A stretch of 61,895 nucleotides of DNA from a virus (IMGVR_UViG_3300016675_000012:1-61895), one strand, 5' to 3'; counted from the first letter of the stretch, positions 4,866 through 32,148 are shown. A program made the numbers and translations. Notes: generated by a model from the sequence alone, not told the origin.

Positions 4866-6232
4866 TGACCCAACGCCGGAAACCCAAGCTTCTGATCATC
4901 GGTCATGCTCGTCATGGCAAAGACACCTTTGCTGAGCTGCTCCGTGACAAACTGGGTCTGGCCTTTACCTCCTCCTCCCATTTCGTGGGGGAGGAGTGTA
5001 TTTGGCCCATGTGGGGAAAAGAGCGGTATCCGTCTTTCGAAGCCATGTTCGAAGATCGGGTCAACTACCGCAAACTGTGGGCTGATCTCATCTCTGCCTA
5101 CAATACTCCCGACAAGACCAGAACTGCTCGAACCATGCTGGAACGTGGCTACGACATGTATGTCGGAATGCGTCGAATGGACGAATTCGTGGCATGTCAT
5201 CAGGCCAAGCTGTTCGACTATGTGATCTGGGTTGATGCTTGCAAGCGTCTTCCCCCTGAAGGTGCAGACTCCAATGAGATGCTTCCCAATCTGGCTCATC
5301 TCTTTGTAGACAACAACGGTCCTCTGGAAGCTCTGAACGAATACGCTGATCTGCTTCAGAAAAAGCTCCACGAAGAGGGCTTTGATGTCGGTATGGATGG
5401 TCCCAAGACCCTCGAATGGACCGACATGCCTGAAGGAGCAGTCCGTGTTCTCGACCATGGTTTCTTCATTGTCCGTGAGGTCATGGGATCTGACAAAGCA
5501 ATCGCTGACTCAGCCCGTATGAGCTATGGACGTGGAACCAAGAAGACCAACACTGATGAAGGTCTCATCAACTATCTGGTTCACAATCATCATACCTCTC
5601 CTCTGGAGATGGGTGAGATTCGTGTTCACATGAGGCTTCCCATCTTTGTCATGAGGCAACTCATCAGGCACCGAACAGCCAACGTCAACGAATACTCAGG
5701 TCGCTATTCCGAGATGGTTCGTCTCTTCTACATCCCTGAATTTGAACACATTTGTCACCAAGACACTGTGAACAAGCAGGGATCGGCTGAACCTCTGGAC
5801 AAGGAAACTGCTGCTAAAGTCCAGATGGAAATGCTTCGTATCTCGAACGAAGCTTTCGACACCTATGAGAAACTTCTGGAGAAGAAGGTCTCTCGTGAAA
5901 CTGCTCGGATGGTGCTTCCTCTGAACACCTATACCGAGTGTGTCTGGAAGATCGACATCAACAATCTGACCAAGCTCTTGAAGCTGCGTGATGACTCCCA
6001 TGCTCAATATGAGATCAGGGTCTATGCAAAGCTTCTGGCCGAAGCTCTTCAGCATTTCTTCCCTGCTGTTTACTCGGCTTATGAGCGTGACAGAGGACGG
6101 GTGAGCCTAAACAGGGATCAGCTTCGTGCTTTGATGACTGGACATCTGGTCAATCTGAGCAAATCCGAAGCCAAAGTTGTTCGTGACCTCTTGAACGAAC
6201 ACGACATTCCGGTATTTGAGCCGGAAGAATGA
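4865..6232 (+). CDS. thyX: fusion of dNMP kinase (N-terminal) and flavin-dependent thymidylate synthase ThyX (C-terminal)
   Basis: N-terminal P-loop IIGHARHGKDT; C-terminal HTSPLE, RHRTANVNEYSGRY, ETARMVLP and HAQYEIR ThyX motifs. Confidence 0.9.
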   Translation: MTQRRKPKLLIIGHARHGKDTFAELLRDKLGLAFTSSSHFVGEECIWPMWGKERYPSFEAMFEDRVNYRKLWADLISAYNTPDKTRTARTMLERGYDMYVGMRRMDEFVACHQAKLFDYVIWVDACKRLPPEGADSNEMLPNLAHLFVDNNGPLEALNEYADLLQKKLHEEGFDVGMDGPKTLEWTDMPEGAVRVLDHGFFIVREVMGSDKAIADSARMSYGRGTKKTNTDEGLINYLVHNHHTSPLEMGEIRVHMRLPIFVMRQLIRHRTANVNEYSGRYSEMVRLFYIPEFEHICHQDTVNKQGSAEPLDKETAAKVQMEMLRISNEAFDTYEKLLEKKVSRETARMVLPLNTYTECVWKIDINNLTKLLKLRDDSHAQYEIRVYAKLLAEALQHFFPAVYSAYERDRGRVSLNRDQLRALMTGHLVNLSKSEAKVVRDLLNEHDIPVFEPEE

Positions 6233-20630: not shown

Positions 20631-21032
20631 ATGCGTCAAACCATGGACACCTCGAAGATGGTCTTCGTCTTCGGGAGCAACCGCTCTGGCATCCACGGAG
20701 CTGGTGCAGCACGTTATGCTGCCCAGTATCGGGGTGCTGAGATGGGCGTAGGAGAAGGCCCCACAGGGAACTGCTATGCGCTTCCTACGAAGGGCTACAA
20801 CATCACCTTCATGTCTCTTGACGAGGTGACTGCCCATGTGCAGAAGTTCCTTTCCTACGCCAAAGAACATCCCGAACTGGACTTCCAAGTGACACAAGTT
20901 GGCTGTGGTCTAGGTGGGTTCAGAAAGGAGGACATCGCTCCTCTTTTCGAATACGCACCTGACAACTGCTACTTTGATGAGATGTGGAAGTCTCACTTGC
21001 CTCCGTCTGCCCAATACTGGGGAACTTTTTGA
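20631..21032 (+). CDS. macro-domain-like phage protein
   Basis: VFVFGSNRSGIHGAGAA...YALPT...FQVTQVGCGLGG...IAPLF motif set. Confidence 0.7.
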   Translation: MRQTMDTSKMVFVFGSNRSGIHGAGAARYAAQYRGAEMGVGEGPTGNCYALPTKGYNITFMSLDEVTAHVQKFLSYAKEHPELDFQVTQVGCGLGGFRKEDIAPLFEYAPDNCYFDEMWKSHLPPSAQYWGTF

Positions 21033-21511
21033 TGGAAAACTGGAAAGACTGTATAGGCTTCGAAGGTTACTATGAGATCAGTGACCAAGGAAATGCCAGA
21101 CGTGTTGGGAAGACAAAGCCTCTGGCTCAAGTCATCAACAAAGATGGCTATGTCTGTTTTGTCTTTTCAGTGAATGCCATCAAAACCAATGTGTTAGCTC
21201 ATCGGCTGGTAGCCATGGCTTTCATTGGACCTATTCCTCTGGGTCTCATTGTGCTTCACAATGATGGGATCAAGACAAACAATACACCATTGAACTTGAG
21301 ATATGGAAGCAATGCTGACAACTCTCAAGATATGGTGGATCATGGAAACCAAACCAAAGGAGAAGCATCGCACCTCTCCAAGCTAACTGAACAACAGATA
21401 CGGGAAATCCGATCTTCCACCCTATCCACAGTTCAGCTCGGGAAGATGTATGGTGTCTCCAAAGGAAACATTTCCATGATCAAAAACTTCGTCACATGGA
21501 AACATGTCTGA
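21032..21511 (+). CDS. NUMOD4-HNH homing endonuclease
   Basis: WKDCIGFEGYYEISDQG (NUMOD4), HRLVAMAF, HNDGIKTNN...NL, KLTEQQIREIR HTH. Confidence 0.9.
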   Translation: MENWKDCIGFEGYYEISDQGNARRVGKTKPLAQVINKDGYVCFVFSVNAIKTNVLAHRLVAMAFIGPIPLGLIVLHNDGIKTNNTPLNLRYGSNADNSQDMVDHGNQTKGEASHLSKLTEQQIREIRSSTLSTVQLGKMYGVSKGNISMIKNFVTWKHV

Positions 21512-21559: not shown

Positions 21560-21609
21560 GAAGCCCCTGCTGGTTTTCCCGACCCAAACCAGTGGGGGCT
21601 TCTGTTTTT
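21560..21609 (+). terminator. Rho-independent terminator upstream of nrdJ
   Basis: GAAGCCCCTGCTGGTTT / AAACCAGTGGGGGCTTC stem followed by TGTTTTT. Confidence 0.75.
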
Positions 21610-21630
21610 CCAACTGAAGAAAGGGACATC

Positions 21631-23955
21631 ATGTCTTCAAAAAACCCCTTCTCCCAACCGATCTCTGAGCAGATCTGGAGGGAAAAGTATCGTCTGATCA
21701 CTCAACGAGAAGAAGTGCCAGATGATGAAACGGTCCAAGACACTTGGATGCGTATCGCCAAAGCCTGTGCAAACTCTCAGCCTGAGCTGTATGGCCATGA
21801 TCACACCATGGACCTTCCTGACACTGTGATCGCTTCCCGAACTCGTGAGTTCTACTCGGCTCTTGAAGACTTCAAGTTCCTTCCTGCTGGTCGTATCACT
21901 GCTGGTGCTGGTTCAGGTCGAAATGTGACCCTGTTCAACTGCTACGTCATGGGCACCATTCCTGACTCCATGGCAGGTATCTTTGACATGCTCAAGGAAG
22001 CTGCTCTGACCATGCAACAAGGCGGTGGTATCGGTTATGACTTCAGCACCCTTCGTCCCAAAGGGGCACCTGTCAAAGGTGTGGATGCTGACGCTTCTGG
22101 TCCTCTGACGTTCATGGATGTCTGGGACGCAATGTGTCGAACAGTCATGAGTGCTGGTTCTCGTCGTGGAGCCATGATGGCAACCATGAGATGTGACCAT
22201 CCTGACATCGAAGACTTCATCACGGCCAAGAGAGATCCTCTGCGTCTTCGTATGTTCAATCTGAGTGTGCTGGTCACAGACGCATTCATGAATGCCGTGA
22301 AGAATGACGCTGACTGGAACCTCCACTTTACCAATCGTCATGGTGAACGTCGGATCTACAAGACGGTGAGAGCCAGAGATCTTTGGGAAAAGATCATGGA
22401 CAACACTTACAACTTTGCTGAACCGGGTGTGATCTTCATCGACCGGATCAATGCAATGAACAACCTGTGGTATGCTGAAACCATTGCAGCTACCAATCCT
22501 TGTGGTGAGCAACCTCTGCCTCCCTATGGAGCTTGTCTCCTTGGTTCAGTGAACCTGACCAAAGTGGTGATCAATGCTTTCACCAAAGATTCCTACATTG
22601 ACTGGGATCTTTTGGAGAAAGTCACCAAGCAGGCTGTAGAAATCCTTGATGCAGTCATCGACATTTCCCTGTTCCCCATTCCACAGCAACTAGCTGAAGC
22701 CAAAGCCAAGCGTCGTATGGGGATCGGGATCACTGGTCTGGCTGATACTCTCCTCATGATGGGTCTGACCTATGGTTCAGACGAGGCTGCAAGCCTTCTG
22801 GACACCATCATGATGACCATGACCTGTGCTGCCTACAGACAGTCTATCGAGCTTGCCAAGCTCTATGGACCCTGCCCTGTGACCATGACTCTGGAACAAC
22901 GTCAGAAGTATGTATCTGGTCGTTTCATCTCAAGTCTGCCTAAAGACATCCAAGATGGTATCATCCAGCATGGGATCAGAAACAGCCACCTGATGTCGAT
23001 TGCTCCCACAGGGACCATCAGCCTGTATGCTGGTAATATCTCCAGTGGTATCGAGCCTATCTTTGCTCCTTCCTACACTCGCAAGGTTCTGAATCCTGAT
23101 GGAACCAAGAGACTGGAGAAAGTCGAAGACTATGCAGTTCGACTCTATCGTGAGCTGATCAACTTCGATGATGATGATCCCATTCCTCATCTGGTGACAG
23201 CTCAAGATCTTCCTGCTTCTGCTCATCTGAAGATGCAGGCAACAGCTCAGAAGTGGGTAGACAGCTCTATCAGCAAGACCATCAACCTGCCTGAAGAGAT
23301 CTCCTTTGAAGAGTTCAAAGAGGTCTACATGGTGGCCTATGAGTCTGGCTGCAAAGGCTGCACCACCTATCGGCCCAATCCTGTCACTGGTTCCATTCTC
23401 GCTGTTGAAGAGAAACCAAAGGAAAAACCAGAGACCAAGCCTGAGCCTCAAGTTCTTGCTGGTCGTCCCGAAGCTCTGCAAGGGTCAACCTACAAGATCA
23501 AGACTGGTGGATCTGAACATGCGATGTATGTCTCCATGACCTACATCGAAGAAGATGGGAAGAAGCGTCCTTACGAAGTCTTCATGAACTCCAAGAACAT
23601 GGAACACTTCGCTTGGACAGTCGCTCTCACTCGAATGATTTCGGCTATCTTCAGACGTGGTGGTGACGTTTCCTTTGTGGTCGAAGAACTGAAAGCAGTC
23701 TTTGATCCCAGAGGCGGAAGCTGGGTCAAAGGACGTTATATCCCCTCTGATGCTGCTGCCATTGGTGGGGTCATCGAAGAATTCATGATGGAAATCAACT
23801 ACATTCCAGAGAATGTCAAAGTTGTTTCCAAAGCGATTCCTGCTGATGTCTCTGTTGAAAAGGTTGAGCTTTGCTCCAAGTGTCATAGCTCAAACATGAA
23901 GAACGAGTCTGGATGCCTTGCGTGTCTGGATTGTGGCCACTCCAAGTGTGGCTGA
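21631..23955 (+). CDS. nrdJ: class II (adenosylcobalamin-dependent) ribonucleotide reductase
   Basis: LFNCYV, RRGAMM, TNPCGEQPL, CLLGS, IAPTGTIS and KGCTTYR motifs; C-terminal TSCPD-like domain and CxxC...CxxC...KCG; no small-subunit gene nearby. Confidence 0.92.
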   Translation: MSSKNPFSQPISEQIWREKYRLITQREEVPDDETVQDTWMRIAKACANSQPELYGHDHTMDLPDTVIASRTREFYSALEDFKFLPAGRITAGAGSGRNVTLFNCYVMGTIPDSMAGIFDMLKEAALTMQQGGGIGYDFSTLRPKGAPVKGVDADASGPLTFMDVWDAMCRTVMSAGSRRGAMMATMRCDHPDIEDFITAKRDPLRLRMFNLSVLVTDAFMNAVKNDADWNLHFTNRHGERRIYKTVRARDLWEKIMDNTYNFAEPGVIFIDRINAMNNLWYAETIAATNPCGEQPLPPYGACLLGSVNLTKVVINAFTKDSYIDWDLLEKVTKQAVEILDAVIDISLFPIPQQLAEAKAKRRMGIGITGLADTLLMMGLTYGSDEAASLLDTIMMTMTCAAYRQSIELAKLYGPCPVTMTLEQRQKYVSGRFISSLPKDIQDGIIQHGIRNSHLMSIAPTGTISLYAGNISSGIEPIFAPSYTRKVLNPDGTKRLEKVEDYAVRLYRELINFDDDDPIPHLVTAQDLPASAHLKMQATAQKWVDSSISKTINLPEEISFEEFKEVYMVAYESGCKGCTTYRPNPVTGSILAVEEKPKEKPETKPEPQVLAGRPEALQGSTYKIKTGGSEHAMYVSMTYIEEDGKKRPYEVFMNSKNMEHFAWTVALTRMISAIFRRGGDVSFVVEELKAVFDPRGGSWVKGRYIPSDAAAIGGVIEEFMMEINYIPENVKVVSKAIPADVSVEKVELCSKCHSSNMKNESGCLACLDCGHSKCG

Positions 23956-24009: not shown

Positions 24010-25284
24010 ATGTCACTTAACAAGGGCCAACAGGCTGGATTCCTTGATGTAATCAAGTTCATCAACGATCCAACACAGAAGTATGCACACGTTTCAGGTG
24101 GTGCAGGAACAGGCAAGACCTATTTCATCAGCCAGATCGCTGAAAACATCCTGAAGCACAAAGCGCCTCAAGTGCCTCTCTATTCAGTGGCAATTACCGC
24201 AACCACCAACAAAGCTGCTGCGGTTATTTCTGATGCCATGCCTCAAAGGGCTGGCGAGATTGGCACTATCTTCTCTTTCATGAACCTCCGAGTTCACGAG
24301 AATTTCGCCACTGGTGAGACATCCATTGTCCCTACTCCCAATTGGAAAGTCCACTCTGGCTATTTTGTCATTATCGACGAATGTTCAATGGTGACAAAAG
24401 ATCTATTCAAATACCTTGAGAAAGGTTTGGACAATACCTGCAAAGTTCTCTTTGTTGGTGACAAGAATCAATTGGCTCCTGTGAAGGAAACCATTTCCCT
24501 CATCTACACCCAGAACTTCCAGATCAGTTATCTGACTCAGCCTGTTCGGAACGCAAATCAACCTGCTCTCATGGCTCTCTGCGAACAAGCAAAACAAACA
24601 GTTCTGACTGGTCAGTTCTTCCCCATCAAGGAAGTCCCCGGAGTCATAGACTTTGTTGATGGCACCACTGTTCAGGGAATCCTTGAAAGGGAATTCCTGA
24701 AAGAAGATCCCGGCAAGAGAGTCATTTGCTACACCAACAAAAGGGTGCTGCAATACAATGACTACATTCGTCAGATTCGTGGATACTCCAAATCCTATGA
24801 AGTCGGTGAAATCCTCTCCAACAACAGCTCTGCTGAATTGTTGGGAAAAGAGCGTCTCTATACTGACCAAGTGGTTCAGGTGAAAACCATCGTCTCTGAA
24901 CAGGATGACCCCCACATCGTTCCGGGAAATCATGTTCCTACTGTCACGCTTCAGGTCGAAGATGTGATGAGCCATGTCCTCTATGAGGTCACTGTGTTCA
25001 AGCATTACCAAGACCGTGATGCTGCCATGAAGTATTACAGCTCCCGGAAGCAGTGGGACAAATACTTCAAGGTCAAGAACAACTTCCCGGATCTCCGTTC
25101 AGTGTCTGCATCCACAGCTCACAAAGCTCAAGGTTCAACATATGATTCTGTGATTGTGGACTTGTCAGACATCGGAACTTGCACCAATCTCGATCAGACA
25201 GCTCGTATGCTTTATGTCGCTTTGAGCCGACCCAGAAGCAGGCTGTTCATTCGGGGCAAGCTTCCTGATCGGTATTTCTCCTGA
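24010..25284 (+). CDS. SF1B RecD/Dda-like DNA helicase (N4 gp37-like)
   Basis: GGAGTGKT, TATTNKAA, IIDECSM, GDKNQL, TAHKAQGSTY and LYVALSR motifs. Confidence 0.9.
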   Translation: MSLNKGQQAGFLDVIKFINDPTQKYAHVSGGAGTGKTYFISQIAENILKHKAPQVPLYSVAITATTNKAAAVISDAMPQRAGEIGTIFSFMNLRVHENFATGETSIVPTPNWKVHSGYFVIIDECSMVTKDLFKYLEKGLDNTCKVLFVGDKNQLAPVKETISLIYTQNFQISYLTQPVRNANQPALMALCEQAKQTVLTGQFFPIKEVPGVIDFVDGTTVQGILEREFLKEDPGKRVICYTNKRVLQYNDYIRQIRGYSKSYEVGEILSNNSSAELLGKERLYTDQVVQVKTIVSEQDDPHIVPGNHVPTVTLQVEDVMSHVLYEVTVFKHYQDRDAAMKYYSSRKQWDKYFKVKNNFPDLRSVSASTAHKAQGSTYDSVIVDLSDIGTCTNLDQTARMLYVALSRPRSRLFIRGKLPDRYFS

Positions 25285-25323: not shown

Positions 25324-27375
25324 ATGAAATACGAGATCGTTGGAAAGGGCAACAAACCCAACATTGCAATTCTGTGCCCTCGGATTCAACCCGAGGAGAT
25401 AGAAAAGCATTACGGGGATCTTCTGCAACTTGGGTCATCACTGATGGTCTGCGACCTCTATCAGGATCGAACCAAGAAGAAGACGAGCAACGATCAGATC
25501 AAGGAATACCTGAATGATCTGATGCCTCATCTGATTTCTCGTGGAATCAACTTCCTGATCGTGACTCATCCTGAATACTTCAAGGTTCTGTCTCGACAAT
25601 CGAAAACAGATGCCACCATTGGTGACATCTATCCCTCCATATTCCATGGAGTGGATGTGACCTACTTCCCGAACTATGGTCGTGTCTTCTATGACCCAGA
25701 GAAAACCAAAGCCAAAATCGACATTGGAGTGTCGTCGGTCATTCGCTGGATGAAGGGAGACAAGACTCCCATTGGACAATCCATCATCAAGTTCGAAGCT
25801 TATCCAATGACTGATCAAGAGATTCTTGATTGGCTGGACAAGCTGTATGAAATGGATGTGGATCTGACCTGTGACATCGAAGGTTTCAGCCTGAAGCATT
25901 ACGATGCTGGGATTGGGACCATCACTTTCTGCTGGACTGAGAATGAAGGCATAGCTTTCCCAGTAGACTATGTGACTGATCCTTCCACTGGTTTGGGAAT
26001 GCAGGTCAAGAATCTGAGAATCAGGAGAGCCTTGAAGAAGTTCTTTCAGGTTTTCCGCAGGAAGATGACCTATCACAACATCTGCTATGACGCATATGTT
26101 CTGATCTACCAGCTCTTCATGGACCATATCTTGGACCAAGAAGGTATGCTGGAAGGTCTCGAAGTGATCCTGAGAAATTGGGATTGCTCTCAGATCATTA
26201 CCTATCTGGCAACCAATTCCTGCTCAGGGAATGAACTGGGTCTCAAGACTCAAGCTCAAGAATTTGCAGGAAACTATGCTCAGGAAGAGATTCACGACAT
26301 CACCAAGATTCCGCTCAAGGATCTCCTGAAATACAACCTGACAGATGGTCTTGCCACTTGGCATGTCTACAAAAAGAATCTGCCAATCATGATTGCTGAC
26401 GATCAGATAGGTGTTTACCATCAGATCTTCAGACCCGCTGTAGTTGACATCATCCAGATGCAGCTCACGGGTATGCCCATCAACATGAAGAAGGTGGTTC
26501 GTCTGAATAGACAGCTCCAGCAGGAGTCTGAAAACCACATTCGGTTGATGAACAACCTTGGAATCGTGAAGAGCTTCGTTGACCAAATGCTTGATGAGCA
26601 TGTGGCCAAGAAGAACTCCGAATACAAGAAGAAGGTCATCACCAAGGCAGATGTGAAACCGGAAACAATCACGTTCAACCCCGGTTCTCCAAAGCAGCTC
26701 CAAGAGTTCCTCTACTCTCAGGATTTCCTTGGTTTGCCTGTTCTGGATTACACAGACACCAAGCTTCCGGCTACAGGTGCTGATACACTGGAAAAGCTTC
26801 TCAAGCATACCAGTGATCCAGAAGTGATTCTCTTCTTGAACATCCTGATCGAATACAAGGCTTCTGCGATCATCCTCTCTACGTTCCTCCCAGCCTTCCT
26901 ACAGGCCAAGGAAGGTAACGATGGTTGGCATTACCTGTTCGGGAACTTCAGGCTTGGTGGAACAGCCTCTGGCCGTCTGTCATCGAACAACCCGAACATG
27001 CAAAACATCCCTGCTTCTGGCTCTACCAAAGCCAAGCAGAGACTTGCCAAACTGATCAAGGAATGCTTTGAAGCACCACCCGGATGGCTGTTTGTCGGTC
27101 TCGACTTTGACTCTCTGGAAGACAAGATCTCTGCTGTCACAACCAGAGATCCCCAAAAGATCAGGGTCTACACTGATGGATACGATGGCCACTGCTTGAG
27201 AGCTTTCGCTTACTTCAAGGAGCATATGCCAGACATCCAAACCTGTCCTCCGACTGCTATCCCCTACAAGGCTGTAGCCGGAGACACGACCTACTTCTTC
27301 CACTCTGAAGAAGAAGTAGAATACCTCGGACAAGTCTACAAAGGGTCCGAGCTTTTCAAACTTCTGAACCAATGA
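25324..27375 (+). CDS. family A DNA polymerase, N-terminal subunit (3'-5' exonuclease, thumb, motif A)
   Basis: Exo motifs DIEG, HNICYD, YNLTD; GRLSSNNPNMQNIP; motif A GLDFDSLE; DGHCLRA; lacks motifs B and C. Confidence 0.9.
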   Translation: MKYEIVGKGNKPNIAILCPRIQPEEIEKHYGDLLQLGSSLMVCDLYQDRTKKKTSNDQIKEYLNDLMPHLISRGINFLIVTHPEYFKVLSRQSKTDATIGDIYPSIFHGVDVTYFPNYGRVFYDPEKTKAKIDIGVSSVIRWMKGDKTPIGQSIIKFEAYPMTDQEILDWLDKLYEMDVDLTCDIEGFSLKHYDAGIGTITFCWTENEGIAFPVDYVTDPSTGLGMQVKNLRIRRALKKFFQVFRRKMTYHNICYDAYVLIYQLFMDHILDQEGMLEGLEVILRNWDCSQIITYLATNSCSGNELGLKTQAQEFAGNYAQEEIHDITKIPLKDLLKYNLTDGLATWHVYKKNLPIMIADDQIGVYHQIFRPAVVDIIQMQLTGMPINMKKVVRLNRQLQQESENHIRLMNNLGIVKSFVDQMLDEHVAKKNSEYKKKVITKADVKPETITFNPGSPKQLQEFLYSQDFLGLPVLDYTDTKLPATGADTLEKLLKHTSDPEVILFLNILIEYKASAIILSTFLPAFLQAKEGNDGWHYLFGNFRLGGTASGRLSSNNPNMQNIPASGSTKAKQRLAKLIKECFEAPPGWLFVGLDFDSLEDKISAVTTRDPQKIRVYTDGYDGHCLRAFAYFKEHMPDIQTCPPTAIPYKAVAGDTTYFFHSEEEVEYLGQVYKGSELFKLLNQ

Positions 27376-27382
27376 GGAAATC

Positions 27383-27550
27383 ATGAAGAAAAATGTGTTG
27401 TCCTTTGATGAAGCAATCTCTCTGCTTCATGTAGGGGCATACAATTTCAAGTTCCAAAGTCAGCGTGGTGACACGTTTGCTGTGGAGCTTGACCACAATC
27501 TTCGTCCGAAGATTGATCCTGTCGAAACTGAAGAAGAGGAAACCAAATGA
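27383..27550 (+). CDS. hypothetical protein (55 aa; below the ORF-track cutoff)
   Basis: GAGG RBS; MKKNVLSFDEAISLL...EEEETK; ATGA overlap with the next gene. Confidence 0.65.
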   Translation: MKKNVLSFDEAISLLHVGAYNFKFQSQRGDTFAVELDHNLRPKIDPVETEEEETK

Positions 27551-28026
27551 AAGATCTCACTCAGTATGCTGTGAGCAAGATGGTCAACGCCAAACCCATG
27601 ACTCGTGGCGAATACAACAAGTTCCGTGAATGGGAACTGCCTGCCAACGAGAACGGGGATGACGAAGGCTATCTTGTCATTCGCCAACGTGAAGGCGATG
27701 ACCATATGGCTTGGATCCCCAAAGCCATTTTCGAAGAGGAAGCCATCAACTGTTCTGATGGTATGCCCTTCTCTGTCGCACTCGAACAAGTGCTGAACCA
27801 TGGTGCCCGAGCAACTCGCAAAGGCTGGATCGGCAAGAAGATGTTCATCTTCCTCGTTCCGGGTTCTGAATTCGAGGTGAATCGTGAGCCTCTCCTGTCG
27901 ATTCTCGGTGAAGGAACCAAGGTGAAATACCACGGTCACATCGACATGAAGACTGCGACTGGAGAGATCGTTCCTTGGTTGGCTTCTCAAGCTGACCTCC
28001 AAGCCACGGACTGGACGTTTGTCTAA
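27547..28026 (+). CDS. DUF2829/Tad2-like protein with an extra N-terminal domain
   Basis: C-terminal MPFSVALE...ATRKGWIGKKMFIFL...VPWLASQADLQATDW matches the DUF2829 pattern; N-terminal AKPMTRGEY...GYLV...WIPKAIFE domain. Confidence 0.75.
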   Translation: MKDLTQYAVSKMVNAKPMTRGEYNKFREWELPANENGDDEGYLVIRQREGDDHMAWIPKAIFEEEAINCSDGMPFSVALEQVLNHGARATRKGWIGKKMFIFLVPGSEFEVNREPLLSILGEGTKVKYHGHIDMKTATGEIVPWLASQADLQATDWTFV

Positions 28027-28238
28027 TGCACAAGGAAGGCATGATTCGGAGACTCAAGAACCCCGACATGTATTCCGTTCAGACTGCTGATCCCAAGGTG
28101 ACAATGCTGCTCAAGGAGGACACCCTCCTTGAGTGGCCTGTCGGGAGTGGCAAAGGAATACCTGTCTCCAAGATCTTCCAGAAACAGGAGAAGGAACGTC
28201 ATGCTAAAGATCACGAAACCCCTGACAGCAGTGCATGA
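28026..28238 (+). CDS. hypothetical protein
   Basis: TAATG coupling (alternative ATG 28041 with AAGGA RBS); overlaps the pol-C start. Confidence 0.55.
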   Translation: MHKEGMIRRLKNPDMYSVQTADPKVTMLLKEDTLLEWPVGSGKGIPVSKIFQKQEKERHAKDHETPDSSA

Positions 28239-28956
28239 AACCACTGCCTCAGAACACGATGTTTCTCGGATCAATGGCATCAAAGTCAGCTACCCTGCCT
28301 TCAGACAAGACTCTAAGGCTCCCACTTTCGCCCTGACCTATCAGGGAACCTACATCACTCTCATGACCAACTGTGGCTTTGCCAAGGATCTGGCCATGAG
28401 CATTGAAGCCAGTTACCACGACCTTTACGTCGTGTCTGACAAGTGGGTTCAGGATCGGTTGGACCAAGCCTGCAAGGATGGATACGTCACTCTGGCCTTT
28501 GGCTTGAGGCTCAGGACACCTCTTCTCAAGCAGGTAGTCTTGGGCACCAGTGCCACTCCTTTTGAGGCTGCTGCTGAAGGCAGGACCGCTGGCAATGCCC
28601 TTGGTCAGAGCTGGTGTATGCTGAACTCTCGTGCTGTCTCTGGCTTCATGAAAAAGGTCAGAACCAGCAAACACAGGCTGGACATCAAGCCCTGCTCTCA
28701 GATACACGATGCGTCCTACTATCTCATCAAAGATGACATGGAGACGCTCCTCTACACCAACACTAACCTCTCCAAAGAGGTTAGCTGGCAGGAAGATCCC
28801 CTGATCCAGAACGAACACATCAAGATGAGTGGCTCCTTGGCTATCTTCTACCCGAACTGGTCCAAGAGCTTTGACATCCCCAATGATGCTGATGAACCCA
28901 AGGTTAAGTCCTTGATCAAGAAGCATTTGGTGAAACTTGAAGGAGAAACCAAGTGA
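28201..28956 (+). CDS. family A DNA polymerase, C-terminal subunit (fingers motif B, palm motif C)
   Basis: RQDSKAPTFALTY (motif B), RTAGNALGQS, QIHDA (motif C); own AGGAG RBS before ATG 28201. Confidence 0.9.
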   Translation: MLKITKPLTAVHETTASEHDVSRINGIKVSYPAFRQDSKAPTFALTYQGTYITLMTNCGFAKDLAMSIEASYHDLYVVSDKWVQDRLDQACKDGYVTLAFGLRLRTPLLKQVVLGTSATPFEAAAEGRTAGNALGQSWCMLNSRAVSGFMKKVRTSKHRLDIKPCSQIHDASYYLIKDDMETLLYTNTNLSKEVSWQEDPLIQNEHIKMSGSLAIFYPNWSKSFDIPNDADEPKVKSLIKKHLVKLEGETK

Positions 28957-29954
28957 AGATTACCAATGAGATGGGCATTGATCTGCCTCTTGCTGTCTGG
29001 CTCTTGCAAGACGGTTACAAGTCTGGTGCTGACAATGCTCCTCCCGGTGAACTGCTTTCAGTCACCACTCTCATGAAGCCCACTCGTCAGCTCATCCTGC
29101 AACGAAAGGTGGACTTCTCCAAAGAGACTCTGGACCTGAGTGAACTGGTCTCGTCTCGTATGGGCCACGGTCTCCATGACAGCATTGAACGTGCATGGAC
29201 CGAAGGTGACTGGAAAGGAGCCATGAAGAAGCTCCACTATCCTGACTCGATCATCAACAAGATCAGGATCAATCCTCCGATGGACAAGCCTTTGGAAGAA
29301 GGCGTCATTCCAATCTATCTGGAGCAACGTGGTTTCAAACCCTTTGAAGACATCGTTCTGACTGGTCAGCTCGATTTCCTCATTGGTTCATCCTACAGAG
29401 ACTTCAAGTCCACTTCGACTTTCTCCTACACTTCAGGATCGAAAGACGAAGACTACGCTCTGCAAGGATCTCTCTATCGCTTCATCTTCCCTGATCTGAT
29501 CAAGGATGATGTCATGCGTATCGAGTTCATCTTCACCGACTGGGCTTCCTACAGAGCCAAGACAGACAAGAGCTACCCTCAAGCTCGTGTGGCTCACAAG
29601 GAGTTCAAGCTCCTCAGCCTGCGTGACACTGAAATGTGGCTCTCGTCCAAGCTGGCTGAGATCCGCAAGAATGCCAAGCTGCCTCAGTCAAAGATGATCG
29701 AATGCACCGACAAACAGCTCTGGAGAGCTGACGATGTGTTCAAGTATTACTCGAACCCTGAGACAGCCAAGACTGGTGGTCGATGCACCAAACGCTTTGA
29801 CAAGGAAAGCGAAGCCGTTCTCTTCATGCAGGAGAAGGGCAAAGGTGTCATCGTCAAAGAAGCCGGAGAACCGAAAGCCTGCATGTATTGCAACGCTTTC
29901 CAAGTCTGTGAGCAGCGGAAACGCTACTTCAATGACGATGGTTCTTCCCGGTAA
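28953..29954 (+). CDS. PD-(D/E)XK exonuclease-like protein (N4 gp42-like)
   Basis: SVTTLMKP, GHGLH, GQLD...DFKST, LQGSLY, C-terminal CxYC...C. Confidence 0.8.
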   Translation: MKITNEMGIDLPLAVWLLQDGYKSGADNAPPGELLSVTTLMKPTRQLILQRKVDFSKETLDLSELVSSRMGHGLHDSIERAWTEGDWKGAMKKLHYPDSIINKIRINPPMDKPLEEGVIPIYLEQRGFKPFEDIVLTGQLDFLIGSSYRDFKSTSTFSYTSGSKDEDYALQGSLYRFIFPDLIKDDVMRIEFIFTDWASYRAKTDKSYPQARVAHKEFKLLSLRDTEMWLSSKLAEIRKNAKLPQSKMIECTDKQLWRADDVFKYYSNPETAKTGGRCTKRFDKESEAVLFMQEKGKGVIVKEAGEPKACMYCNAFQVCEQRKRYFNDDGSSR

Positions 29955-29979: not shown

Positions 29980-32148
29980 ATGTCCTCTTCCAAGATCTTT
30001 GATCTGGAAGTGCTGAAAAGCACTCCCCATCACGTTGCCATGAGCGAGATCGTTGATCTTCTGTGTCATCGCACTGGCAACGTGAACCGAGACTTCTTCC
30101 AAGCAGAAGTCGCCTACTTCCTCGGTCTGATCCCCAGTGCCATGAGAGTGACCATCGAAAGTGCTGAACGTGGCAAGATCCCGGTCAACATCTATTCGAT
30201 TGCTCTGGCCACCTCTGGCTTTGGCAAGGGTCACTCTGTCTCTCTGATGGAAGACATGATCTCTGACTTCCGTGAGACTTTCGTTCAGAAGGTCTTTCCC
30301 TTCATCGCTGAGAAGTCTCTCTATGATCTGGCTACCGAACTGGCAGCAGCCAAGAGCGGTGATCAAGCAGAAGAACTGAAGCTGCTGGAAGCAGACTTCA
30401 AGCGTCAGGGTCATGCTCCTTTCATCTTTGACTCAGGCACTGGTCCTGCTGTCAAACAGCTTCGCTACAAGCTGCTTCTGGCTCGTGCTGGCTCCATCAA
30501 TTTCCAGATGGATGAGATTGGTTCCAACCTCAGTGGTCAGACTGAAATCATCAACATGCTCCTTGAGCTGTATGATCTGGGTCGGATCAAGACCAAACTG
30601 GTCAAGAACACTGTGGACAATGAACGTGGGATCGACCTTCATGGTTCGACTCCTGCAAACATGCTGATGTTTGGCACCACTTCGAAACTGTTCGATGGAG
30701 CCAGAACTGAAGAAGAGTTCTACAGCTTCCTTGAGATCGGCTATGCACGTCGTTGCTTCTTCGGTCTGGGAAAGCCTGAGATCTACAACTCTCAGGTGAA
30801 CCCTGAAGATGTCTACAACGGTCTGGTCTCCAAGAACCGTTCCCAGAACCTCGTGAAATGGAAAGGCATCCTGAAGAACTTCGCTGATCCTGCTCACTAT
30901 GGGACCAAGCTCCAAGTTCCTCGTCAGGTCGGTGTGAAGCTCGTTGCCTACCGTCTGCTGTGTGAAAGCCTTGCTAATGCAATGGCTGAACACGAAGTCA
31001 TTCGGAAAGCTGAAATGAGTCACCGTTACTTCAAAGCTCTGAAGCTGGCTGGTGTCTATGCCTATCTTGATGGCTCCAAGGACATCACCATGGACAACTT
31101 GATGCAGGGCATCAAGGTCGCTGAAGAGTCTGGTGCAAGCTTCCAGCAACTTCTGAAGCGTGAGAGAAACTTCGTCCGTCTGGCGAAGTATATCGCTGCT
31201 TCTCCGGGAGAACTGACCCATGCTGATCTGGTCGAAGATCTTCCCTACTACCCCACCGCTACTGGACCTCGTAAGGAGATCATGGACCTCGCCATGGCTT
31301 GGGGTGTTGGGAACCATGTGGTCATCAAGAAGACCGTTGTCTCTGGAGTGGAGTTCTTCACTGGCTCTACCCTTCAAGAGACAGATCTCCAGAAGATCAT
31401 GTTCAGCTACTCTGACCATTTCGCTCAGAACTACACGTCTTACCAGAAGCCTTTCGACAAGCTTCCACAGCTCCTTGGAGCTAAGGACTTGCACTGGTGC
31501 AACCATGGGTTCGACAAGGAACACAGAGCTGAAGAAAACGCACTGGAAGGCTTCAATCTCCTTGTCGTGGACGTGGATGGGACGATCTCCCTGAATGCTG
31601 TCCATGAGCTGATGAAGGACTATACGTTCATCACCAGCACCACTAAGAGACATACTCCTGATGTGAACCGTTTCCGGCTCATCATGCCAACTAACTATGT
31701 CCTCAATCTGGACAAGGTTGACTATCGGGAGTTCATGAACAGCTTCCTTTTGTGGCTTCCCTTTGACTCGGATACCTCTGCGAACCAGAGGTCCAAGAAA
31801 TGGATGACTCATGAGGGATCTACCATCCATCTCCACCGTGGACCCAATCTCGTCAATGTTCTACCCTTCATCCCGAAGACCAAGCAGAACACTGAATACC
31901 GGGCTTCGATTGTCGATCTGGGACGCCTCAACCATCTGGAACGCTGGTTCCTCAACAACATGGATGAAGGCAACCGGAACAATAATCTGGCCAAATTCGG
32001 CATGATGCTTATGGACGCTGGCATGAGCTACGATGAGATCGTCCACAAGATCTACACCTTGAATGATCAGTGTCAGTCTCCCCTGAAGAAGGATGAGATC
32101 CAGCAGACTGTTCTCAAGTCAATCGCTTCGAAAATGTCGAAGAAGTAA
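29980..32148 (+). CDS. N4-type DNA primase (gp43-like)
   Basis: SGFGKG, DEIGSNL, VVDVD, TTKRH...RFRLI and EGNRNN (PriCT-like) motifs; N4 synteny. Confidence 0.85.
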   Translation: MSSSKIFDLEVLKSTPHHVAMSEIVDLLCHRTGNVNRDFFQAEVAYFLGLIPSAMRVTIESAERGKIPVNIYSIALATSGFGKGHSVSLMEDMISDFRETFVQKVFPFIAEKSLYDLATELAAAKSGDQAEELKLLEADFKRQGHAPFIFDSGTGPAVKQLRYKLLLARAGSINFQMDEIGSNLSGQTEIINMLLELYDLGRIKTKLVKNTVDNERGIDLHGSTPANMLMFGTTSKLFDGARTEEEFYSFLEIGYARRCFFGLGKPEIYNSQVNPEDVYNGLVSKNRSQNLVKWKGILKNFADPAHYGTKLQVPRQVGVKLVAYRLLCESLANAMAEHEVIRKAEMSHRYFKALKLAGVYAYLDGSKDITMDNLMQGIKVAEESGASFQQLLKRERNFVRLAKYIAASPGELTHADLVEDLPYYPTATGPRKEIMDLAMAWGVGNHVVIKKTVVSGVEFFTGSTLQETDLQKIMFSYSDHFAQNYTSYQKPFDKLPQLLGAKDLHWCNHGFDKEHRAEENALEGFNLLVVDVDGTISLNAVHELMKDYTFITSTTKRHTPDVNRFRLIMPTNYVLNLDKVDYREFMNSFLLWLPFDSDTSANQRSKKWMTHEGSTIHLHRGPNLVNVLPFIPKTKQNTEYRASIVDLGRLNHLERWFLNNMDEGNRNNNLAKFGMMLMDAGMSYDEIVHKIYTLNDQCQSPLKKDEIQQTVLKSIASKMSKK

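Follow-up and report, generated by a model that had tools for sequence, protein, structure and literature searches.

Introduction

How can a DNA polymerase be built when its gene is interrupted between two of its catalytic motifs? The question is raised by a locus in the viral record IMGVR_UViG_3300016675_000012, whose entire 61,895-nt stretch is referred to here as the window. On its plus strand a family A DNA polymerase (PF00476, N4 gp39-like) is encoded in two parts, polN (25324–27375) and polC (28201–28956), and the original prediction, drawn from the sequence alone, took these to be a non-spliced heterodimer in which a tail added to the first part and a leader added to the second act as docking modules. 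We arrive at a related reading, to which we assign a probability of roughly 85%: the polymerase is a "gene in pieces" produced by an HNH cassette, the endonuclease has since been lost, and the two chains reassemble without splicing.

A series of events can be envisioned that would lead to this state. A free-standing homing-endonuclease cassette of the HNH type (NUMOD4 + HNH_3) would have inserted at the fingers tip of a family A polymerase gene, giving the upstream part an in-frame C-terminal extension and a stop codon, and the downstream part a ribosome-binding site, an ATG and an N-terminal extension. The window's lineage would then have lost the endonuclease gene while the split, the tail and the leader stayed. 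The two polypeptides would be translated separately from one operon and would reassemble non-covalently, with no splicing, into one active enzyme, held together by the large native palm and fingers interface, with the tail and leader acting as an extra clasp at the break. The vacated junction would be left as an intergenic slot, flanked by highly conserved sequence of an essential gene, in which small genes come and go. The comparisons described below directly support several elements of this scheme: how the split gene is laid out, how it is conserved, that it is under selection, that its junction is homologous to junctions with an endonuclease, and that the cargo turns over.

A Polymerase Divided between Motifs A and B

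The polN gene encodes 683 aa comprising an exonuclease region, the thumb, palm motif A, the first fingers helices and the tail. It matches phrog_17 at 8.5e-108 and the Pfam family PF00476 (DNA_pol_A) at 4.2e-26, the latter over residues 424–636 and profile positions 8–200 of 381. The polymerase core terminates in ...YFKEHMPDI at 27237 and is followed by a 45-aa tail (27238–27372) that is absent from intact polymerases, and the gene closes with a TGA stop codon at 27373–27375; every coordinate that had been given for the locus is correct. The 251-aa polC product carries motifs B and C and matches phrog_2573 (1.7e-36) as well as PF00476 (3.4e-07, profile positions 184–336 of 381), the score of 30 bits falling below the curated cutoff of 34.3 because polC holds the last part of the domain only. 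As first noted, polC has its own ATG at 28201, preceded by AGGAG (28186–28190) and GAAGGA (28190–28195), which can be read from the sequence as a Shine–Dalgarno-like AGGAGAAGGA (28186–28195), and it begins with a 19-aa leader (28201–28257) that is likewise absent from intact polymerases. The leader is followed by DVSRINGIKVSYPAFRQDSK, the polymerase resuming at (H)DVSRINGI. Open reading frame (ORF) calling places the start of polC further upstream, at a TTG at 28129; the polC starts of 10 relatives align with 28201, reading M-L-(K/S/V)-(I/F) or MQRI, and in one of them (L008) the start codon is GTG.

The residues that we take to be motifs A, B and C of the family are all intact across the two halves, catalytic Asp residues included. 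Motif A (D594-F-D-S-L-E599; 27103–27120) supplies the first catalytic Asp and lies on polN, and D594, F595, S597, L598, E599 and D600 are invariant columns in an alignment of 65 N-halves. Motif B (R35..G49; 28303–28347), with R35, K39, F43 and Y47 invariant, and motif C (H169-D170; 28705–28710), with both residues invariant, lie on polC, such that the catalytic Asp residues of motifs A and C (D594 and D170) reside on separate chains, as had been proposed. The break between motifs A and B is clean, and alignment with the single-chain polymerase of Dinoroseobacter phage DS-1410Ws-06 reveals that no residues have been lost. By comparison with Taq and Klenow polymerases, it presumably falls at the fingers tip, in the loop that precedes the O-helix. 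The two halves do share a reading frame in the window, as was pointed out, but nothing follows from this, since in relatives such as L003, L007, L008 and L009 the halves are in different frames.

Reality and Spread of the Split Form

The possibility of an assembly artefact at the junctions is excluded by independent assemblies: two further studies each provided a contig, about 97% identical to the window, that bridges the polN tail, the cargo and polC (667 nt in run X2 and 74.9 kb in run X3). Database searches returned 1355 matches to polC-like proteins of 138–440 aa, and 104 of 120 among the matches listed measure 243–259 aa. The end region of polN returned 714 matches, and 119 of 120 among the matches listed stop after the tail; most of these are 676–722 aa long, with eight shorter, and many are found on contigs of about 70 kb. 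More than 100 protein clusters exist for each half in public data. The single exception among the 120 listed is P0226 (964 aa), which still ends in the tail and is longer than other polN proteins because of an intein elsewhere in its chain. That intein is canonical (C...HN|S, at GRLS|SNNPN), with the Pfam domain PF14890 precomputed in the database, and it represents a third kind of mobile element within the polymerase gene. An intact polymerase carrying the tail and leader as one uninterrupted insertion was not found among the 30 hits of a tail profile (see below) or the 120 listed matches. In pairwise comparisons of relatives, the ratio of nonsynonymous to synonymous substitution rates (omega) for the polymerase core is 0.01–0.08.

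Sequence conservation is not limited to the core. Nine aligned tails share the invariant residues P4, F21, H22, E25, Y29, G31 and G36, and 11 aligned leaders share the pattern M-L-x-(I/F) ... (H)-(N/D)-V; across 67 C-halves, V21 never varies and M1, L2 and H19 hardly do. In the 40 listed rows for cultured phages, matches to polC start at residues 18–35. For unsaturated pairs, omega of the tail is 0.28 (window and L003), 0.11 (L003 and L004) and 0.08 (L009 and L012), and that of the leader is 0.09 (L009 and L012). The nonsynonymous proportion (pN) is lower than the synonymous proportion (pS) in 36 of 36 pairs, and both extensions evolve faster than the core. Judged from these ratios, the tail and leader are under purifying selection, and every split form examined at the window's site (site 1) keeps both, endonuclease-free forms included.

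A tail profile run against 1.84 billion representative proteins gave 30 hits. Of these, 28 are N-halves of the polymerase, or fragments, whose tail lies at or close to the C-terminus, and in none is the tail internal; its position was taken from the sequence for 23 hits and from table coordinates for the rest. The other two, P0259 and P0261, are repeat proteins and were judged spurious. When every six-frame ORF piece from the window and the loci was scanned by hidden Markov model (HMM), no tail or leader module was found outside the polymerase. We also considered that the tail might be a diverged copy of downstream polymerase sequence, the candidates being full-length matches of 40% identity in Agrobacterium phage OLIVR1 and others; this was rejected because those matches overlap polC's own match and rest mainly on 30 conserved core residues. 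Separately, the polymerases in L103/L104, L048/L049 and L053 (about 4060–4300 in L103) are split at the window's site and have extensions too divergent for the tail profile; for example, ...LPDGT..V.. is seen at the end of tails, and FN|V, FD|V or YN|V at the end of leaders. On this comparison, the range of extension types exceeds the family studied here.

Probable Footprints of a Homing Endonuclease

That the 825-nt gap (27376–28200) is filled by three packed ORFs on the same strand, with no homing endonuclease, holds for the window, where Pfam and PHROG scans found no such gene between polN and polC, but not for its relatives. An HNH gene lies between the same tail and leader in five loci (L008, L033, L034, L035 and L043). 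In L008, a 182-aa endonuclease with NUMOD4 and HNH_3 domains abuts polC. The other four loci came from a metagenome scan. In L033, L034 and L043 an endonuclease of the same family (197–198 aa) occupies the entire junction; the 5′ end of the endonuclease gene overlaps the tail's end in all three, and its 3′ end reaches into the beginning of the leader in L034 and L043. L035 contains a match to the same endonuclease at the corresponding place. Because the same junction carries an HNH gene in these five relatives, we read the window as a derivative from which the endonuclease has been lost, comparable to the clades without an endonuclease that are described for MobA. The original prediction had left out this origin. 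An HNH homing-endonuclease cassette, which some relatives still possess at this junction, left the tail and leader behind as its footprints.

A second split site, 22 residues upstream of the window's (KVY|TDGYDGH), provides an additional line of evidence. It is used in L031, L039, L045, L052, L059, L064, L066 and L084 and also in cultured phages such as Pylas, VEc25 and Pollock, and a homologous endonuclease was mapped at the upstream junction in L031, L039, L052, L064, L084 and those cultured phages; the Klebsiella phage Pylas locus (L113, 758–4038) is classed here. Over 169 aa, the L008 endonuclease shares 35% identity with that of L031 (1e-30), and the endonucleases of L039 and L031 are 44% identical. 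When a profile of 127 site-1 tails was compared with about 6,900 ORF pieces, the upstream-site tail was recovered at E = 5.6e-5, with the next hit at 2.5. It is the flanking of an HNH gene by the same tail and leader in five loci, together with a homologous tail at a second site, that leads us to a gene in pieces whose endonuclease has been lost.

The distribution of the two breaks gives some idea of their history. Among 30 viral loci fetched with polC, ten, and the window, have the same tail and leader; L014 has the same leader, its tail region lying outside the locus. Of 79 loci with both polymerase parts (the window included, and L039, which is split at both sites, left out), the polymerase is intact in 53, broken at the window's site in 19 and broken upstream in 7. 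A quick IQ-TREE search on 74 distinct rows, five duplicate rows having been dropped, requires a minimum of 5 changes for the window's split state and 6 for the upstream state. Two loci with the upstream split, L064 and L084, hardly differ from the intact L063, L067, L071 and L051, so that at the upstream site the cassette is present in some alleles and absent from others that are nearly the same; for the window's site, the loci yielded no intact partner that is nearly identical. The picture suggested by these sequences is of a mobile cassette with repeated invasions, which in the window's lineage would be old and would have lost its endonuclease.

Several observations bear on the same elements. 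L039 (653–6041 of a high-GC, N4-like contig of 73.8 kb) has a polymerase divided into three or more pieces, the locus comprising an N part that carries an intein, which has a frame break inside it; an HNH endonuclease at the upstream split; a 91-aa micro-subunit consisting of the leader, 20 polymerase residues and the tail; a 188-aa cargo ORF with no assigned function; and polC. Micro-subunits of the same kind are present in databases (P0254, P0255 and P0260); a scan of viral contigs with P0254 gave no triple-split example, and L039 emerged from a metagenome scan. In the window itself, a free-standing 175-aa ORF at 20984–21511 (plus strand), just upstream of the class II ribonucleotide reductase gene, is 35% identical by tblastn to the polymerase-splitting endonuclease family, and a related endonuclease therefore persists in this genome outside the polymerase.

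Predicted Reassembly of the Two Chains

Structure prediction of the complex, which the original prediction had named as a check, was carried out with polN residues 370–683 and polC, using a separate alignment for each. The interaction prediction score from aligned errors (ipSAE) was 0.76, as compared to 0.00 for the best control. In calibration, 116 of 157 solved complexes and 2 of 215 mismatched pairs scored as high as the complex did. Separate runs share at least 98% of their contacts, and the predicted local distance difference test (pLDDT) score of the partner is at least 84. Predicted strands near motif A (588–592) pair with strands near motif C (173–177 and 214–216), an arrangement that the model may simply have learned, because any single-chain family A polymerase shows it. 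Both extensions fall within the predicted interface: tail residues 639–641, 646–653, 655–660, 663–669, 671, 677–678 and 681–682 on one side, and all of polC residues 1–28 on the leader side. No solved structure could have taught this placement of the tail and leader. Between 338 and 347 confident contacts are predicted, of which the majority fall outside the two extensions. Within the limits of computation, the proposal of a non-spliced heterodimer is supported, with docking by the tail and leader predicted by the model.

Alternative Explanations

The 1017 nt between the two cores could be imagined as a self-splicing group I or group II intron that houses the ORFs, with a spliced mRNA encoding one full-length polymerase. 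Group I introns do exist elsewhere in N4-like phages, for example in the td gene of pVa5, matched by RF00028 at 1e-18 (PMC5746245); the GenBank annotation of the Klebsiella phage Pylas polymerase is a joined coding sequence (CDS) whose endonuclease is noted as "homing endonuclease intron"; and the 231 nt across the L012 junction fold better than shuffled sequences (z = −2.83). However, an E-value Rfam scan of 26900–28600 detected no intron family even at E up to 10, yielding five chance-level matches to snoRNA, microRNA and cis-regulatory families, and none was detected in L031 4000–5200 at E up to 1. The segment that would have to be excised encodes the selected tail and leader, polC has its own start codon at a position kept across the 10 relatives, and in L012 the cores are only 201 nt apart, nearly all of it coding, with the entire junction reduced to the 9 nt of TAA-GGAGaccgt-ATG and the halves in frame. 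Since junction lengths vary between 9 nt and about 2.3 kb and the genes inside are unrelated, a ribozyme core common to all of them is impossible, and we regard an intron, whose absence had been predicted, as very improbable. No terminator-like site was found on the plus strand of the gap. Ligation at the protein level fares no better. The tail and leader would have to constitute a very small or degenerate split intein, and together they total 64 aa, in comparison to a HINT domain of roughly twice that size. Neither polN nor polC has a Pfam Hint or intein match, whereas P0226, which demonstrates that true inteins do enter this polymerase, carries PF14890. Most leaders end in His-Asn and the tail has an invariant His, as protein trans-splicing would want, but the window's leader ends in His-Asp, the residue after the leader is the invariant Val (V21) and not Cys, Ser or Thr, and the third tail residue, Cys in the window, is C, A, T or L among relatives. 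The absence of an intein junction thus stands as first noted, and although the layout of gene-N plus peptide, endonuclease, and peptide plus gene-C is that of the "fractured genes" of Dassa et al. 2009 (PMC2677866), we consider trans-splicing to be highly improbable.

If the halves are not joined, it might be argued that they are not used at all, and that the locus is a decaying pseudogene or an assembly artefact in a phage replicated by another polymerase. The interruption itself is all that would suggest this, and it is set against independent assemblies, more than 100 clusters per half (many on contigs of about 70 kb), core omega values of 0.01–0.08 and a complete set of catalytic motifs; the chance that it is correct appears negligible. 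A more serious contender accepts that the split is real and that the chains assemble, and holds that the tail and leader are unneeded for binding, serving instead in higher-order assembly, partner binding, or folding and stability, or persisting as slowly decaying leftovers. There is a precedent in NrdA-a and NrdA-b, whose tails are essential for activity yet "not required for heterodimer formation" (PMC3045599); in addition, the predicted native interface is very large, with most confident contacts outside the extensions, and the extensions evolve faster than the core. On the other hand, both are kept in every site-1 split examined, those without an endonuclease among them, nearly all of their residues lie in the confident predicted interface, and omega well below 1 argues against decay. 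On balance, this explanation seems unlikely.

Several points weigh against a gene in pieces that reassembles by means of its extensions, and they are best considered together. Likeness to solved single-chain family A polymerases may account for much of the prediction score, and the prediction cannot separate tail–leader contacts from a remembered polymerase fold. The clasp goes a step beyond the model, because the prediction output gives interface residues and not tail-to-leader pairs. Given that the NrdA tails are not needed for heterodimer formation, "docking" may be the wrong word for the extensions. Cross-site homology is statistically supported for the tail alone, because the upstream leaders did not match the leader profile; no leader homology between the two sites was found by HMM, the leaders being too short to test, and their resemblance is by eye only. 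The window's clade on the quick tree comprises 9 split and 2 intact rows (L015 and L017), and the presence of these intact polymerases inside a split clade would require re-fusion or several gains. Finally, none of the sequencing runs listed as containing the locus is recorded as RNA, and two that are labelled RNA-Seq contain contigs with no joint across the whole insert; these are probably DNA and are therefore informative neither way.

The Junction as a Cargo Site

In the window, the polN stop codon TGA is followed by a 7-nt spacer, ggaaatc, and then an ATG (27373–27382 for stop and spacer), which is a conserved coupling junction on the plus strand. The stop-gga..-ATG context follows polN everywhere, regardless of the next gene; it reads T(G/A)A-gg.a..-ATG in L003, L009, L011 and L012, and in L012 that ATG is polC's own. 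Three cargo ORFs follow on the plus strand. Cargo ORF A (27383–27550, 55 aa) has no Pfam or PHROG match, and a homologue of 43% identity is present in the same junction in L008. Cargo ORF B (27547–28026, 159 aa) has an N-terminal domain with no assigned function and a Tad2-like (DUF2829) domain at residues 73–159, with matches to Pfam PF11195 (1e-21, 77.7 bits against a cutoff of 25), to phrog_872 (7.4e-39) and to the Protein Data Bank sequences of ModTad2 (9eib, 8.3e-13), Tad2 (8v3e, 1e-12), SptTad2 and AcrIIA7. It is thus a putative Tad2-like anti-defence sponge, whose target cannot be read from the domain alone because the Tad2/DUF2829 family also includes AcrIIA7. Cargo ORF C (28026–28238, 70 aa) has no family match, overlaps the start of polC by 38 nt and has a homologue of 74% identity at the same place in L003. 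As a side observation, comparison by eye of the 55-aa ORF with a 141-aa Tad2-like protein in L010 (96–521) shows a likeness to the N-terminal part of that protein, the two sharing SFDEA....G..F, and the ORF may have come from a Tad2-like gene by detachment or duplication of a fragment.

The proposal that the split point serves as a cargo-insertion site is supported by a survey of relatives, in which the junction contains Tad2-like genes, Acb2/Tad1-like genes, a class II ribonucleotide reductase or nothing, and differs even between strains that are about 97% identical. Specifically, in the strains of runs X2 and X3 position 27382 is joined to 27547, an exact 164-nt cassette with the 55-aa ORF being absent, such that the Tad2-like gene comes directly after the polN stop codon. 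From polN stop to polC ATG, the junction measures 1198 nt in L008, which holds the 55-aa ORF, a Tad2-like gene and the endonuclease, and 9 nt in L012, where it is empty. A Tad2-like gene occurs with a 75-aa ORF in L003, alone in L004 and L010, and, in L014, fused to a weak Lar-like match (below the Pfam cutoff) alongside other ORFs, the upstream end lying outside that locus. The junctions of L005, L006 and L013 hold a crAss001_48-like gene, an Acb2/Tad1-hairpin protein and a 54-aa ORF, and that of L007 holds RyR plus an Acb2/Tad1 hairpin. A complete class II (B12-type) ribonucleotide reductase of 643–664 aa sits in the junction in L037 (1254–3248) and L041 (4233–6164), and L038 and L042 have the same tail and spacing as these two. 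The small ORFs in L009, L011, L036, L039 and L040 match no Pfam family above cutoff, with one L040 ORF having weak helix-turn-helix matches. The empty L012 junction is adjoined by a perfect hairpin at about 5030–5055, within the leader-coding sequence, which could influence reinitiation or could be a remnant of an endonuclease regulatory hairpin.

It is tempting to go further and to view the junction as a mobile slot. The break would then be the vehicle by which genes for counter-defence sponges of the Tad2-like and Acb2/Tad1-like types, and even for a ribonucleotide reductase, move between N4-like phages of aquatic habitats. Because the cargo is flanked by conserved essential sequence, and in L008 lies beside a homing endonuclease, it could be copied into related phages by homing or homologous recombination at co-infection. 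If this is true, the benefit of the cargo, and not only irreversibility, would explain why the split persists after endonuclease loss. We put this forward tentatively and have more doubt than confidence in it. Gaps between other replication genes also hold small ORFs, so the junction may behave like any intergenic site: L004 and L005 have ORF-sized gaps of 350–400 nt between polC and the exonuclease gene, and DS-1410Ws-06 has two hypothetical CDSs between its helicase and polymerase.

Genomic Setting

The record is 61.9 kb in size, with no end repeats and an estimated completeness of 84%. The split polymerase is embedded in a replication module with the order Dda-like helicase (24010–25284), polN, the three small ORFs, polC, gp42-like exonuclease (28953–29954) and primase (29980–32148). 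A class II ribonucleotide reductase gene (21592–23955) is located upstream of the helicase, as is also the case in DS-1410Ws-06. The closest cultured phages are the N4-like roseophages (Schitoviridae, Rhodovirinae), at 72.8% DNA identity over only 18% of the region, and the window phage is a freshwater or wastewater N4-like phage.

Relation to Known Genes in Pieces

The arrangement is of a known kind, exemplified by MobE in nrdA and MobA in topoisomerase, rather than a new principle, because the tail and leader are the footprints of an endonuclease cassette. In phage Aeh1, Crona et al. (2011, PMC3045599) reported that tails arising from the mobE insertion are essential for activity of the split NrdA, and proposed such tails as a general way to neutralise fragmentation. 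As in our case, the gene of an essential replication-related enzyme is cut there by a free-standing HNH-type endonuclease, and the insertion-born tails accompany reassembly without RNA or protein splicing. The differences are that here a family A polymerase is broken at the fingers tip, that the endonuclease has been replaced by other genes and that the role of the tail is predicted. For the split topoisomerase of T4 (gene 39/mobA/gene 60), Manning and Atkins (10.1101/2022.08.31.505936) describe a MobA-derived C-terminal extension of about 44 aa plus an N-terminal extension, recurrent insertions among near-identical "parental" genomes, and clades that lack the endonuclease and keep both extensions. 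In-frame extensions are common to both systems, as is an endonuclease ORF that overlaps an extension in another frame; by contrast, the polymerase has no translational bypass cassette, its N-terminal extension is shorter (19 aa) and the vacated site holds cargo. The fractured genes of DNA-metabolism enzymes that Dassa et al. (2009, PMC2677866) found in aquatic metagenomes have a free-standing endonuclease between peptide-bearing halves, and those peptides are true split inteins that ligate the halves, whereas intein features were looked for here and are lacking.

Cultured N4-like phages (Klebsiella phage Pylas; Escherichia phages VEc25, Pollock, PMBT57 and others) have the same polymerase family and endonucleases that are 45–50% identical to that of L031, but they are split 22 residues upstream, with the endonuclease present and no cargo. 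The interrupted Pylas polymerase appears in GenBank as a two-piece joined CDS, and no intron family is found in the homologous L031 insertion. Petrov and Karam reportedly described gp43 (PolB) of Aeromonas phages 44RR and 25 as encoded in two cistrons, with or without an endonuclease between them; this is said to be a family B enzyme with a break point unlike the window's. Split family A polymerases have been noted without explanation in OM43 phages (PMC10580990) and in one cyanophage lineage, and Pfu polymerase is reported to tolerate an engineered termination–reinitiation split at the fingers tip. Literature searches, with subscription journals outside their coverage, found no paper on the polymerase split in N4-like phages, and the endonuclease-free form at site 1 had no counterpart among 50,697 phage records. 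What is new here is a family A polymerase in pieces whose endonuclease has been lost and whose slot has been re-used.

Implications

With this locus, a replicative polymerase, from a large branch of uncultured N4-like phages, joins the short list of enzymes that are known or proposed to be rebuilt from pieces by way of element-borne extensions, which stand as a third route beside RNA splicing and protein splicing. The split can outlive the selfish element behind it, and the event recurs at two sites only 22 residues apart. In practical terms, these findings caution against annotating such genes as intron-containing joined CDSs, and the break at the fingers tip provides a natural example for the engineering of split family A polymerases. 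If the cargo-slot idea is true, the junction would also be a place to look for new anti-defence genes.

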